NCBI GenBank assembly: GCA_964016885.1
Contig: CAXHJY010001082.1
Span: forward strand, 1-64,000
DNA length: 64,000 nt
DNA from: Eledone cirrhosa
Lineage: Eukaryota
Direction: 5' to 3'
Both the position numbers and the translations under genes were made by a program. This document shows positions 16,125-62,735 of the stretch, piece after piece; position 1 is the first letter of the stretch; each line of letters starts with the position of its first letter. Below the pieces are notes generated by a model. It did not search any database and was not told where the DNA came from. It saw nothing but the letters and a program-made list of their open reading frames with translations.

Positions 16125-16218
16125 ACCCCTTGAGAAGATCGGCTATTTAAATACCAGGATAAATGTTCATTTAGTCCAGAATTAGCCGTCGAAACGGCTT
16201 GAGCTCAGCTGTCGGGGT
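16125..16218 (+). ncRNA. Type I hammerhead ribozyme with variant U3:A8 core (family A)
   Basis: Stem I ACCCC/GGGGT; core TTGAGAA (16130-16136); stem II GA(T)CGGCTA/TAGCCGTC; GAAA (16191-16194); stem III ACGGCT/AGCTGT around palindromic GAGCTC; GUC site, predicted cleavage after 16213. Confidence 0.75.
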
Positions 16219-16928
16219 CTTACTGGTTCCTATATACGTATATATATATATATACATGTAATATATATATGTATATACGTATATATATATATATATGTAT
16301 ATACGTATATATATGTATATACGTATATATATACATGTAATATATATATGTATATACGTATATATATATATATATATATACAATATATATATGTATATAT
16401 ATATATGTGTACATATATATAATGTATACATATATATAATGTATACATATATATAATGTATAGATGTATATATATATATATATATAATATATATATTTGT
16501 ATATATATATATATATAATATATATATGTGTATATATATTATATATATGTATATATATATAATATATATATGTGTATATATGTATATATATATAATATAT
16601 ATATGTGTATATATGTATATATATTTAATATATATACGTATATATATATTTAATATATATATATATGCATATATATATAATATATATATGTGTATATATA
16701 TATTTATATATATATATAATATATATGTGTATATATATATTTATATATATATAATATATATATGTATATATATATTTATATATATATAATATATATATGT
16801 GTATATATATATTTATATATATATAATATATATATGTATATATATATTTATATATATATAATATATATATGTGTATATATATATTTATATATATATAATA
16901 TATATATGTATATATTACATATATATAT

Positions 16929-17732: not shown

Positions 17733-17794
17733 ATACCTTGACTGTGTTGATGGTTAAAATGACCGAATTTTAACCATCAACACAGTCAAGGTAT
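17733..17794. repeat. Perfect hairpin, 28-bp arms and 6-nt loop
   Basis: ATACCTTGACTGTGTTGATGGTTAAAAT-gaccga-ATTTTAACCATCAACACAGTCAAGGTAT. Confidence 0.9.
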
Positions 17795-24354: not shown

Positions 24355-24462
24355 GAACAGTTCTAGTCCTGTAGAAGCTCTTCTATATTAAAACTGTTAT
24401 ACTCTGCTTTGTATTGAGTACCTTACTTCCTGTGGTTACCTCCGATTCAACCCCGGAATAAC
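24355..24462 (+). mobile_element. Family B terminus fragment
   Basis: AACAGTTCTAGTCCTGTAGAA..GTATTGAGTACCTTAC..CCGGAATAAC, homologous to 37071-37175. Confidence 0.8.
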
Positions 24463-29137: not shown

Positions 29138-29545
29138 TAATAATGTTTTTACATATAATCAGCCTCCTATTCCGCTGAAGAGTCATACAGATACATATTG
29201 TGGACAACAGTGTGTGATGGGTAAGATTCAAAATTACAATTAAAAGCTTTTGGTGGAGCATGTGTCAGATAATACAAGAGCGTCTAGTACATAAATAAAA
29301 TGAAAGAGACAGTACGTGCGTTAGTCATACATAAAGCAATTGAACAGGCAAAAGTATCAAGCATATACGAATGCTGGGTGTTGCATACAAAATACAAGCA
29401 CATAAAGCAGGTGTGTTAACATATTATGGTAGTTGCAATGCTGAGATATTTTCAGTGTAGATCGAATATGTGTGTGTGTGTAGAATAAGACAGTTCCAGG
29501 TTTCACATCCATTACATATGTCACGATGTATGTGTTGAGTGTTTG

Positions 29546-29633
29546 TTATAACAAACACTCAATACATAGCAGAGTATAACTATGTAATATAGAAATGGCT
29601 TCCATATGACTAGAACTGTTTCATTCGAAGGAA

Positions 29634-31112: not shown

Positions 31113-31537
31113 TAATAATAATTGTTTCTACTTTTGGTACAAGGCCAGCAATTATCCCAGTGAAATTACTGGTACTTTATTTTATCGACCCCGTAAGGAT
31201 GAAAGACAGTTAATCTCGGCGGGATTTGAACTCAGAGCGTAAAGGGCCGTAACTCTACGCTACAAAGCATGGTGTCCGACTCTCTACTGATACTGTCAAA
31301 TGGTTTCTTATATAGGCAAAAGGCCATCAATTTTTTGGGGGAGGGAAAAAGTCGAGTAAATCGACCCCAGTACGTTACTGGTACTTTATTTCATCGTTCC
31401 CGTAAGGATGAAAGGCAAAGTTAATGAAAGGCAAAGTTAACCTCGGCGGAATTTGAACTCAGTCCGTATACGGACGTAACTCTATACTGCAAAGCATGGC
31501 GTCCGGTGCTCTACCGATACTGCCAATTCACTTCCCT
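31113..31537 (-). mobile_element. Two tandem tRNA-derived SINEs
   Basis: Two copies of ACTGGTACTTTATTT..GTAAGGATGAAAG..CTCGGCGG.ATTTGAACTCAG..GATACTG. Confidence 0.85.
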
Positions 31538-31541
31538 CATC

Positions 31542-31584
<43 letters not shown>

Positions 31585-31949
31585 CCACGACACTAACAAC
31601 AACAAGAATATCCTCGATGAAACAATACTAGCCATAGTAATATATTAAATAAATGTGTACTGATCTGACTGATCTCTTAATCATTTAGAACATGAAAAGA
31701 AAAAGAATAAACGATTTATTATAGTCTTCATTAATGAGTCGCAATACGATTTGAACAACAATAACAACTGTAACAAGATTATGAACAACAACAATAACAG
31801 TAACAACAGTAGTAACATCAAAACCATCTAGATGATGGACATGAGCAAGTACAAGAAAGACAACAATAACGACAACGACAGCTGCAACAACAAAGAAAAT
31901 AAAAAAAAAGTATTGACAAGAAAATATAGAAAACAATGACAGAAATATC

Positions 31950-32450
31950 TACAACAACAACAACAACCACGAAAATAAGTATAACAAAAAACACCAACAA
32001 CAATAACAACGGTAATAAGACCATGTTCAACAACTATAACAACCTCCACCACGAAAATAAGTATAACAAAAAGACCACCAACAACAATAACAATATCATC
32101 ATTAACAACAACAATAACAACAGTAATAAGACCATGTTCAACAACAATAACAACAACCACAACCACGAAAATAAGTATAACAAAAAAACACCACCAACAT
32201 TATCATCATTAACAACAACAACAACAACAATAACAACAGTAATAAGACCATGTTCAACAACAATAACAACAACCACAACCACGAAAATAAGTATAACAAA
32301 AAGACCACCAACAACAATAACAACAATATCATCATTAACAACAACAACAATAACAACAGTAATAAGACCATGTTCAACAACAATAACAACAACCGCAACC
32401 ACGAAAATAAGTATAACAAATAACCACCAACAACAATATCATCATTGACA
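31950..32450. repeat. (AAC)-derived higher-order repeat, 4-5 copies of variable length
   Basis: CACGAAAATAAGTATAACAAA and GTAATAAGACCATGTTCAAC recur. Confidence 0.85.
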
Positions 32451-33215
32451 ACAACAATATCAATAATTACAACACTTACAAGACCAAGAACAACAACAAT
32501 AACAACAACAACAGTGAGAACGTCAAAACCAACTAGATGAACATGAGCAACAAGGACAACAACAACAACAGCAACAAAAAAGAGAAAAGTGTTTACAAGA
32601 AAACATGAAAAATAGTGACAAAAATATCATCATCAACAAGAACCACAAAATACGTATAAACAAGTACAACAACCATACTACACCAATAACAACAACATCA
32701 TCATTAACAACAACAACAGCAACAACATGAAAGGGGACATAAAAAGAAAGGTGGTAAAAGTTTCCTTTTGGATAATTACTCAAAAGACTGGAATTTATTT
32801 ATGGAAATAATAATAAATATATCTTGTGGTATAATCCTTATCATCATCATCATCATAGCCAACATCATCGCCATCACCATCACCATCATCATCATCATCA
32901 TCATCATCTTCATTATCGCCATCATAACCATCGTTACCATCATCATAATGATTGTTTACATTGCCATAACCATCATTTTCTCATTCTCCCTCATAACCAC
33001 CATTATCATCATCATCATAACCATCATTATCATCCCTATCATAACCATTATCATCCCCATCATAACCATCATCATCACCATCATAACCATCATTATCATC
33101 ATCATCATAAACCATCATTATCATCACCATCATAACCATCATTATCACCACTAAAACCATCATCATCATCATTATAATCATCATAACCATCATCATCATC
33201 ATCATCATCATCTTC

Positions 33216-33656
33216 AAATTGTTGGCCTTGTGCTTAAATCAGACACCGGTGGATTGGCAGTATCGGTAGAGGGTCAGACACCATGCTTTCCAGCATAGTG
33301 TTACGTCCCTTTACGATTTGACTTCAAATTCCGCCGAGGTTAACTTTGCCTTTCATTCTTACAGAGTCGATAAAATAAAGTACCAGTAATGTACTGATTG
33401 CTGGCCTTGTGCCAACAGTAGAAACAATTATTTGAAGGCGCTGGATTGGCAGTATCGGTAGAACGTAGGACACCATGCTTCGGGACATAGAGTTACGGTC
33501 CTTTAAGTTCTGAGTTCAAATCCTGCTGAGGTTAGCTTTGTCTTTTATCCTTACGGGGTCGATGAAATATAGTACCATTAATTCACTAGGTCGATTACAT
33601 CGACTTTCACCTTCCCCCAAAATTGTTGGCTTTGTGATTAAATCAGACACCAATAT
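33216..33656 (+). mobile_element. Tandem tRNA-derived SINEs (tail + two copies)
   Basis: A box TGGCAGTATCGG and B box TTCAAAT(T/C)C in each unit; reverse complement of the 31.1-31.5 kb copies. Confidence 0.85.
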
Positions 33657-35272: not shown

Positions 35273-35465
35273 TAACGAAGGAAATGTGGTAAGGAACCAG
35301 GTGGACCATAACGCACCAAAGTACTCAATACTTAGGGTAGTAGAGTGGGTAATAGGAACGAGTAGGACCCCGAAGGCTGAGCTCAAGCCGTTTCGACGGC
35401 TAATTCTGGACTAATTAGCCGTCGAAACGGCTTGAGCTCAGCCGTCGGGGTCCTACTCGTTCCTA
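35273..35465. mobile_element. Family A head-to-head inverted terminus pair (two HHR 3' halves)
   Basis: Left arm (minus) carries the HHR 3' half plus ~100 nt of downstream tail; right arm (plus) AATTAGCCGTCGAAACGGCTTGAGCTCAGCCGTCGGGGTCCTACTCGTTCCTA; junction near 35411-35414. Confidence 0.85.
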
Positions 35466-37070: not shown

Positions 37071-37250
37071 GTTATTCCGGGTTGAATCGGAGGTAACCAC
37101 AGTAAGTAAGGTACTCAATACATAGCAGAGTATAACAGTTTTAATGTAGATGAGATTCTACAGGACTAGAACTGTTTCATTCATTAGAAATGATGATTTC
37201 TAATGAATGAAACAGTTCTAGTCCTGTAGAATCTCATCTACATTAAAACT
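37071..37250. mobile_element. Family B head-to-head palindrome broken at the hammerhead core
   Basis: ~55-bp inverted arms around 37191-37196; + strand reads TGATGA-TTTCTAATGAAT-GAAAC-AGTTCTA-GTC; left arm carries a longer tail ending GGAATAAC. Confidence 0.8.
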
Positions 37251-47626: not shown

Positions 47627-48015
47627 AATAATAATTGTTTCTACTTTTGGCACAAGACCAGCAACTACCCAGTGCATTACTGGTATTTTATTTTATCGAC
47701 CCCCCTAAGGATGAAAGGTAAAGTAAACCTCGGCGAGATTTGAACTCACATCATAAAGGGACGTAACTCTATGCGTCAAAGCATGGCGTCCGACCCTTTA
47801 CCGATACTACCAATCCACCGCCCTTATATATAATAATAATAATAATAATTGTTTCTACTTTTGGCACAAGGCTATCAATTATCCAAGTGCATTACTGGTC
47901 CTTTATTTCATCAACCCAGTAAGGATGAAATGCAAGGTTGACAGACCGTAAATGGGCGAAACTCTATGCTGCAAAGCATAGTGTCCGAACCTCTACTGCT
48001 AGTGCCAATCCACTT
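47627..48015 (-). mobile_element. Two tandem tRNA-derived SINEs with (AAT)n tails
   Basis: Same family; the second copy has an internal deletion spanning the B box. Confidence 0.85.
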
Positions 48016-48539: not shown

Positions 48540-48551
48540 TTATTAAAATAA

Positions 48552-48625
48552 CAGATTAAAGTTTAAGCAAAGAATCGCTGCTTTCACGCTTAACGGGATC
48601 TTCTGAAACTAAAAAAATCAATCTG
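48552..48625 (-). ncRNA. Family D hammerhead-like motif with CAGAAGA core
   Basis: Minus: CAGATTGA..AGTTT-CAGAAGA-TCCCGTTAAGCGT-GAAA-GCAG..TTGC-TT-AAACT-TTAATCTG; homologs at 24544-24615 (+) and 49721-49793 (+). Confidence 0.45.
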
Positions 48626-48881
48626 TTAACGCAGAAGTAAATGTTTCGAATAACGTTGTAACTGAAGGAAAACAGGAAGACGATACTTTGATTCGTGAAG
48701 ACGTTCCCTGGCAATGAACGGAAAAAAGCTTAGATAATACGTCGTTATGTGGAGCGTAGAGAAAAAATACACGCAAAGACAAAACCACGTTTATGGTATA
48801 AATGGAGTCATAGACTAATATTCTATTTAGGAAACCGAATGATTCTCGGCTTTGGATTTTAGTCTTCATATTTATTATCTA

Positions 48882-49687: not shown

Positions 49688-49793
49688 TAACGTTTTTCGA
49701 AATATTTACTTCTGCGTTCACAGATTGATTTTTTAGTTTTAGAAGATCCCGTTAAGGGTGAAAGCAGCGATTCTTTGCTTAAACTTTAATCTG

Positions 49794-49797
<4 letters not shown>
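49688..49797 (+). mobile_element. Family D repeat copy inside a Helitron-borne microsatellite
   Basis: Inverted homolog of 48541-48660, flanked by (TA)n on both sides. Confidence 0.7.
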
Positions 49798-49837
<40 letters not shown>

Positions 49838-53365: not shown

Positions 53366-53465
53366 TAAATGAAGTAATTCCGACGGAAAGTTCCAGGAAA
53401 AAAGAGTGCTCTATGTAGGTTAAAGAGCTTGTTAGTTATGTAATAAACATCATAAAAGATAATTA

Positions 53466-53526
53466 TTTAATTTACCAGTGGTTTCTTGAAAGCAAGCAAA
53501 ATTGGCTTTCAGTCATCAGAATGAAA
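53466..53526 (-). ncRNA. Type I hammerhead ribozyme, inverted twin of 53551-53611
   Basis: Reverse complement gives the same core and stems with one stem I mismatch; homology extends over ~53440-53635. Confidence 0.8.
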
Positions 53527-53550
53527 AAAAAATAAAATACACCAGGATTT

Positions 53551-53611
53551 TTTCATTCTGATGACTGAAAGCAAATTTTGCTTCCTTTCAAGAAACCACT
53601 GGTAAATGAAA
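53551..53611 (+). ncRNA. Type I hammerhead ribozyme
   Basis: TTTCATT-CTGATGA-C TGAAAG..CTTTCA A-GAAA-CCACTGG-TA-AATGAAA; 7-bp stem I; GUA site at 53602-53604. Confidence 0.85.
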
Positions 53612-53637
53612 TAATTATCTTATGTTGTTTATTACAC

Positions 53638-53686
<49 letters not shown>

Positions 53687-61524: not shown

Positions 61525-61705
61525 TAACGAAGGAATTGTGGTAAGGAACCAGATGGACCATAACGCACCAGAGTACTCAATACTTAGGGCAGTAGAGTGG
61601 GTAATAGGAAAAAGTATGACCCCGACGGCAGAGCTCAAGCCGTTTCGACGGCTATTTCTGGACTCCAGAAACGGCTTGAGCTCTGCCGTCGAGGTCATAC
61701 TTTTT

Positions 61706-61709
<4 letters not shown>
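61525..61709. mobile_element. Family A head-to-head inverted terminus pair, second locus
   Basis: Same organisation and near-identical tail as 35273-35465; junction near 61663. Confidence 0.85.
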
Positions 61710-61736
<27 letters not shown>

Positions 61737-61742
<6 letters not shown>

Positions 61743-61988
61743 ATAAATATTTCGTATCTCCGAAGAAATACGGTTTTAGGAAGCCGTAGCTATGCAAACA
61801 CCGGGGGGGGGGGGGGGGGGGGGCTAACGCCCTCTGGTGATGTCCAGCAGAAGCAAGGAGGCAACCATCTATGCATTTCAGGCTTAACTGGCCTTCGTCA
61901 GGACGGTCCCTCCCACCGCTTGCGACTGCTGCACTAGAAGACAGGCGAAAACCGTATTTCTTCGGAGATACGAAATATTTATACAAAT
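61737..61988. repeat. Perfect 41-bp inverted repeat enclosing 170 bp of GC-rich sequence
   Basis: 61737-61777 is the exact reverse complement of 61948-61988. Confidence 0.9.
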
Positions 61989-62140: not shown

Positions 62141-62224
62141 TTTCTATCTATATGTATATATTGTTTAGGGATCGATGCGTAGTTTCCAGCAGGTATATGG
62201 GTGTTGTTCTAAGCAGAGTGCAAT

Positions 62225-62402
62225 ATTTGTTTCTACTTTAGGCACAAGGCCAGCAATTACCCAGTGTATTACTGGTACTTTATTTTATCGACGCCGTAAG
62301 GATGAAAGGCAAAGTTAACTTCGGCGGGATTTGAACTCAGAACATAAAGGGTCCTAACTCTTTGCTGCAAAGCATGGCGTCCGACGCACTACCGATACTG
62401 TC
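62225..62402 (-). mobile_element. tRNA-derived SINE
   Basis: Same family (GGCACAAGGCCAGCAATT..GGATTTGAACTCAG..CCGATACTG). Confidence 0.85.
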
Positions 62403-62450
62403 AGTGTAATAATAATAATAAAAAGGACGCGGTGTTAGATTTTATTTCTT

Positions 62451-62646: not shown

Positions 62647-62659
62647 GTGTGTGTGTGTA

Positions 62660-62735
62660 TCCCGAGTTCAAACGGGGATAACCACAGTAAATAAGGTACT
62701 CAATACATAGCAGAAGCAGAGTGTAAATATTCTAT
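62660..62735 (-). mobile_element. Family B tail fragment
   Basis: TAACCACAGTAAATAAGGTACTCAATACATAGCAG matches 37094-37129. Confidence 0.7.

Follow-up and report, generated by a model that had tools for sequence, protein, structure and literature searches.

Head-to-head half-ribozyme palindromes in Eledone cirrhosa as probable products of two primings on one RNA of a Hydra-type Penelope-like element

Introduction

The closest described systems are Penelope-like elements (PLE) of the Hydra clade which, in the available text of PMC8557442, encode a reverse transcriptase (RT) followed by GIY-YIG, with an RW-basic motif, DKT, CxCx5C, CxxC and CxH, carry a hammerhead ribozyme, target (TA)n and leave an inverted 5'-truncated copy with a tail on one side. 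The element reported here resembles them in all of these respects. It differs from what that text gives for the clade in its 3,531-bp unit (generally <3 kb), its 80-nt tail (30–40 bp in the Hydra scheme) and RWR in place of RWK. It has also left stubs in the tens of thousands that stop in a fixed zone, of which that text gives no description. Hydra-1_Obim, listed in the supplement to that paper, is given as 2,507 bp with 'no pLTR'. The inverted truncated copy, the one-sided tail and the microsatellite target are already published in the accessible portions of PMC8557442 and PMC3846280.

Poseidon of Anolis carolinensis (PMC11167929, as far as its available text goes) is also similar: two RT start sites bound the tail, the target is AT-rich, both strands are cut and extended, the ribozyme lies near the start sites and initiation is internal. 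In vitro, the Anolis element cut and extended both strands from these two sites, and a dimer was predicted. That text reports no RNA ends at the cut site and has uncut RNA as the dominant substrate. In our element, most arms stop at a point inside the ribozyme, and the predicted cut is the end of both arms in a minority class. The min-HHR of PLE, in the part of PMC4209133 available, share with our motif a type I fold, a 5-bp helix I, a long helix II, a U3-A8 core, a palindromic loop III and the occurrence of motif pairs on opposite strands, and a circle template was proposed there for more-than-unit copies. Our motif, in contrast, combines a complete helix III with a loop II of about 37 nt, and where their opposite-strand pairs are whole motifs 100–700 bp apart, ours are core-less halves.

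Non-LTR retrozymes (bioRxiv 10.64898/2026.07.22.740005, available text) are likewise short, non-coding, PLE-derived and hammerhead-related, and consist of head-to-tail repeats with a complete ribozyme in each unit. The stubs described here differ in being head-to-head and core-less, with no sign of self-copying. In L1 twin priming, both target ends prime and the resulting head-to-head inversion is joined by microhomology. By comparison, the start sites found here are internal and do not vary, and the arms overlap and together make up a palindrome that is close to perfect. Self-priming fold-back has been proposed for the head-to-head palindromes of Adineta PLE (PMC3846280, in the portion available), and the origin of inverted and tandem PLE insertions and the role of the hammerhead are posed as questions in the accessible text of PMC8557442 and PMC11167929.

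Results

Two palindromes carry core-less halves of a ribozyme

Coordinates refer to the window, the whole 64,000-nt stretch of DNA analysed. Element positions are numbered from 0, the last A of TTCCTA at window position 16232 in the parent copy; on this scale the ribozyme core lies at -102, the A of TTAGTC at -59, the stem II 3' strand at -49, the predicted cut before -18 and the tail at +1 to +80. Locus A (35273–35465) and locus B (61525–61709), singled out in the initial annotation, were both found there, embedded in (TA)n. Their layout was as described: a long minus-strand arm with an 80-nt tail, a junction adjoining CTGGACT and a short plus-strand arm running to TTCCTA, the catalytic box being absent from both.

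The tail of locus A (35273–35352, minus strand, element +1 to +80) ends at the outer priming site, TTCGTTA, against (TA)n. The long arm (35353–35412, minus strand) runs from the stem I 3' strand through the cleavage triplet (TTC in this copy), stem III, GAAA and the stem II 3' strand to A(-59), and an AA beyond A(-59) is common to the long and short arms. The short arm (35413–35465, plus strand, element -52 to 0) ends at the inner priming site, TTCCTA, against (TA)n. Locus B belongs to another subfamily; its tail and long arm (61525–61664, minus strand) stop exactly at A(-59), and its short arm (61665–61709, plus strand) starts at -56, or at -55 after one extra base, and ends in TTCCTA. The stem II 3' strand, said to be kept by both arms, has been lost from the B short arm, which lacks 12 nt between two GAAA words. 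Nor are the loci almost exact repeats of each other, as they are only 87.6% identical (193 alignment columns). Their junctions differ, as does the stem I bulge that marks the subfamily (CCTACTCG in A and CATACTTT in B), each bulge being present in both arms of its own locus. A partnerless short arm of the same family lies at 8425–8481 (minus strand, element 0 to about -55). Judged by their sequence, A and B are the ribozyme-bearing end of an active Hydra-type PLE.

Other repeats in the window adjoin (TA)n. A second family with the same tail-plus-palindrome layout in (TA)n (37071–37249, 24356–24462, 29529–29626 and 62658–62714) probably represents stubs of another PLE, and palindromes or inverted pairs of further families are found at 53435–53640, 17733–17794 and 48540–48657 with 49689–49798. 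Beside locus B there is a 248-bp MITE-like insert with perfect 39-bp terminal inverted repeats (61739–61986), which has no relation to the ribozyme family. Units of about 180 bp make up a dispersed repeat with several copies on both strands (31115–33652, 47628–48015 and 62222–62403).

The parent is a young Hydra-type element

A 5'-truncated parent copy occupies 13677–16232 (plus strand) in (TA)n and includes an RT and C-terminal GIY-YIG ORF to about 15026, a 3' UTR and the ribozyme, ending in TTCCTA. It is identical at 2556 of 2557 aligned bases to the 3,531-bp unit of a tandem array that was found in the genome and that contains a 784-aa stop-to-stop open frame. In the tandem units the tail follows TTCCTA and runs on into the 5' UTR or leader of the ORF of the next unit. 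The array (G000:C1:437198000-437214400) has at least four such units, neighbours differing by one base, and forms one arm of a head-to-head insertion; it is a candidate source locus or rolling-circle product. A protein search of the genome gave 41,339 candidates. The parent family is very young, with all of the best 150 ORF matches 99–100% identical.

The domain order in the 784-aa frame is RT then C-terminal GIY-YIG, with YRDD and YIGLT identified by eye. The frame has LRWRT (R for the K of RWK), SDKTGN (DKT for DKG), a CxCx5C linker, and CxxC and CxH (CKH) flanking conserved E and N residues, and both a hammerhead in the pLTR, with the U3-A8 variant core, and a (TA)n target were found. The parent therefore carries the motifs given for the Hydra clade in the available text of PMC8557442 and, on its sequence, is a Hydra-type PLE. 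No Pfam family matched the truncated or the full ORF. Naiad membership was ruled out by the domain order.

The intact motif (16125–16232, plus strand; stem I 5' strand 16125–16129, core TTGAGAA 16130–16136) is predicted to fold as a type I hammerhead with a U3-A8 core, in agreement with the initial identification. The minimum-energy fold has three helices around an unpaired core, with a fold z-score of -0.34, and the TTGAGAA core is found in 86 of 101 intact motifs. This core variant is known from other PLE (PMC4209133, available text). Rfam gave nothing at gathering score within the 64-kb window, and around 16125–16232 only microsatellite-driven miRNA matches, with no hammerhead family at E values up to 10. 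A second pairing, between the 3' strand of stem II and the 5' strand of stem III, is possible at element -49 to -33 (window 16183–16199) and would mask GAAA; RNA that starts at -59 is predicted to fold in this way, which could hold that end inactive.

Palindromes formed at their own insertions

The family is abundant. The arm 17-mer has 60,041 exact matches in the genome and its reversed control has none, so chance is excluded, and the tail 19-mer has 34,428 exact matches. Head-to-head pairs of exact arms within 30 nt of each other number 11,823 genome-wide, and a stricter pattern reading through across stem II occurs at 3,548 loci; reversed controls again gave zero in each case. As only exact matches were counted, these figures are lower bounds. 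The loci sampled below came mostly from the first 63 Mb of one contig.

One earlier suggestion was that the palindrome is a self-propagating element of about 190 bp, which would make it a MITE- or SINE-like non-autonomous unit copied as such. This would fit the result of a similarity search with the palindrome, in which all 40 of the scored best matches were full-length with 93–100% identity, but that list was selected by similarity and unbiased lists give diverse junctions. Among 22 scored palindromes in a position-ordered sample, 18 distinct junctions were present, and the exact junction of locus A accounts for only 47 of the 11,823 palindromes (0.4%). When 30 of these A-junction loci were fetched, the tail was on one side in 11 and on the opposite side in 19, and three subfamilies were represented. 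Private variants were mirrored in both arms at five of them (L224, L227, L238, L245 and L247). In an alignment of 30 copies, no derived changes were shared. Unlike in a MITE, the internal sequence is not fixed and neither end is an inverted repeat of the other; unlike in a retrozyme, the arms are head-to-head and the core is absent. Copying of a 190-bp unit is refuted for locus A by the A-junction loci and extremely improbable in general, and the same junction types appear instead to have recurred independently.

The two arms were expected to be closest to each other within a locus if the inversion forms at insertion, and this was borne out by the stem I bulge, which was identical in both arms of 29 of 35 palindromes compared with a mean of 10.2 and a maximum of 19 in 10,000 shuffles. 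Since the junctions vary and the arms match within a locus, each palindrome was formed at its own insertion. Two of the 30 A-junction loci (L226 and L246) have arms from different subfamilies, so it seems that two RNAs are sometimes used.

The initial annotation also held that such halves could be cut in trans. In silico, a catalytic strand forms a hammerhead with free RNA spanning -59 to +5 and does not invade the hairpin of the locus A transcript. Trans cutting of palindrome transcripts is unlikely because their halves are locked in this predicted hairpin, of about -120 kcal/mol, which resists the enzyme strand. The unpaired 5' end of the mRNA of the element itself may be a substrate.

Outer ends point to two primings on one RNA

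In nearly all inserts, whether short or several kilobases long, one arm ends at the tail and the other at TTCCTA. Both outer ends abut (TA)n and face outward, at fixed sites 80 nt apart. An inverted partner was detected for 73 of 99 tailed arms of the young subfamily, and 62 of these partners end in TTCCTA-TATA. The layout is that of an EN+ PLE, namely an inverted 5'-truncated copy with the tail at one end only, and long inserts are alike. The 69 short junctions comprised 24 with microhomology, 22 that were blunt and 23 with inserted bases.

If one cDNA or antisense RNA had copied itself by self-priming fold-back, the agreement of arms within a locus and the perfect hairpins at some junctions would follow. 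Against this, 11 of the 73 two-arm inserts have a tail-less arm with at least 10 nt that are not present in the tailed one, and the tail cannot be copied from a tail-less arm. The bases inserted at a third of short junctions (23/69) and outer ends that lie on (TA)n at fixed and different sites are also at odds with fold-back. As a general route it is contradicted by these junctions and quite improbable, though it could survive for a subset of inserts. Priming of two cDNAs on one RNA is the reading that we prefer.

Most arms end in a narrow zone inside the ribozyme

Inner ends were mapped for 225 arms containing the -49 to -35 anchor, with loci chosen by junction, read-through or ORF left out. 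Most (186/225) end between -52 and -65, with 43 at -59, 35 at -58 and 30 at -53, and the remainder comprise seven at -49 to -51, one at -71 and 31 long arms. Against a single start at -59, there is the second peak at -53, and 24 of the 225 reach -60 to -65, many of which are accounted for by microhomology. What had been described as a reproducible template-switch point is reproducible as a stopping zone, but behaves like an RNA 5' end met by two separate cDNAs and unlike a template switch, a fold-back or a structural block. At L041, L060 and L101 arm ends were seen at about -120, two inserts having an arm that ends at a short palindrome just upstream of stem I; these are possibly a minor stop or an effect of microhomology.

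Arm-end mapping places the candidate transcription start, A(-59), at window position 16173 (plus strand). Where the base next to the end was unexplained by the partner arm, it was G in 18 of 25 arms at -59 compared with 20 of 52 elsewhere (Fisher p = 0.008). Nine solo arms at -59, with this base unhidden by (TA)n microhomology, had four G, four C and one A when scored by eye, which is equivocal as regards a cap. RT can copy a cap as an extra base. A(-59) in TTAGTC resembles the animal initiator consensus. Our literature search located no paper on cap-templated G at retroelement 5' junctions. The Penelope of D. virilis has an internal promoter within its pLTR (PMC2377424, available text).

Arms that enter a second repeat behave differently. 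An intrinsic block in the zone should also halt them on the second pass. Among 34 such long arms, drawn non-randomly from the best 150 ORF matches of the youngest subfamily, one stops in the zone (L404, at -58), and because the other 33 do not stop there we read the zone as the 5' end of a major RNA. Seven further long arms ended at +1 to +178, short of the second-pass zone. L404 (G000:C3:311708000-311710000) is the only full-length copy seen to start in the zone and is a candidate copy of the whole capped mRNA. Taken on the sequence evidence, the zone likely marks a capped RNA start inside the ribozyme, and we read the spread of ends as trimming during joining that accompanies run-off at the RNA 5' end.

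Twin priming could instead be combined with a conditional road-block to the first pass at the -59 zone, caused by a bound protein, the ribozyme fold or a cDNA hairpin. A perfect 6-bp hairpin with a four-base loop, formed by the stem II 3' and stem III 5' strands, is completed about 10 nt before the zone, the arm ends are spread across about 12 nt, and abortion soon after initiation would spare second passes. However, the upstream edge is sharp, at a single A, G is in excess beyond that A, and one full-length copy begins at -58; in addition, the other sharp end, at the predicted cut, is evidence that the arms do record ends of RNA. We regard a road-block as unlikely. It is still less probable, and indeed very improbable, that the arms stop at an RNA end made in loop II by processing, through a nuclease cut or a splice-related step, instead of at a cap. 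TTTAG and CCAG adjoining the zone look like splice acceptors, and the intron of D. virilis Penelope ends at its ribozyme (PMC4209133, available text), but the AG that splicing would remove is retained in the arms and no constant upstream exon or leader was seen. For these two reasons the splice-acceptor reading was rejected.

A minority of inserts end at the predicted cut

A small class of inserts, beside the much larger -59 class, ends at -18, where the ribozyme is predicted to cut (between 16213 and 16214, plus strand). Among the 73 young two-arm inserts, three have this end on both arms, and a -18 arm was never paired with an arm of another class. Genome-wide, a pattern with both arms ending near -18 was found at 389 loci, and when 50 of these were listed and scored by eye, 32 ended exactly at -18 on both arms and 18 extended past it on at least one side. 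The 32 exact loci include 24 with foreign bases between the arms (a single A or T in 10) and eight blunt joins, which read CCCC/GGGG and so have ambiguous ends; -18 coincides with the edge of a G4 run. L343, whose arm is of the loop-II type and has an additional G at the cut site, was placed outside this class. On their sequence, the -18/-18 stubs suggest cleavage by the ribozyme inside cells and the origin of both arms from one RNA species.

Read-through arms had no indel at the cut site in any of 97 cases. Sloppy template jumping at the cut site was rejected on this basis; the intact sites fit precise ligation and uncut RNA alike.

Discussion

The features to be accounted for are seen directly in the sequence: outer ends at fixed sites, inner junctions that vary, inner ends of three classes, arms that match within a locus and were joined in place, and long arms that pass -59 and -18. 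The palindromes probably arise when the two ends of a cut (TA)n target prime reverse transcription on a single RNA, from fixed sites that lie 80 nt from each other. Each cDNA would run off the nearby 5' end of this RNA, likely a capped transcription start inside the ribozyme, before the two are joined head to head. A(-59) in TTAGTC would be a Pol II start and the extra G a copy of the cap. RNA starting at -59 would lack the catalytic core, and because of this its 5' end would stay uncut. The ribozyme at the 3' end of the same RNA may trim off downstream priming sites and leave only the 5'-proximal ones, and this would account for the share of stubs among the arms, about 85%. Priming at 0 and +80 near the 5' end would give cDNAs of 59 and 139 nt. 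The -18/-18 stubs may be copies of ribozyme-cut RNA, and more-than-unit arms may come from RNA with no such end nearby, either a circle or a long uncut array.

A broader and tentative reading, doubtful as a whole, takes the stubs as the read-out of a three-state Penelope life cycle in which the hammerhead also switches RNA between translation and service as a replication template. The promoter would fire inside the ribozyme, and the capped mRNA, unable to cut its own 5' end, would yield only dead stubs. Ribozyme cutting in vivo would be recorded in the stubs that have -18 ends on both arms, and more-than-unit copies able to transpose again would come only from monomers that had been cut and circularised. 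The catalytic half at the 3' end of the mRNA could pair with the half-ribozyme at the 5' end, remove the cap and license circularisation.

In the openly searchable literature, we found no paper that places PLE junctions at a start site within the ribozyme or, for both arms, at the cut. In repeat annotation these stubs would be classed, wrongly, as a palindromic MITE. They represent tens of thousands of junctions from a very young family that can be mapped to the base. These junctions speak against self-priming and in favour of two primings on a single sense RNA, they point indirectly to in vivo cleavage by the ribozyme at the base predicted, and they predict a transcription start.
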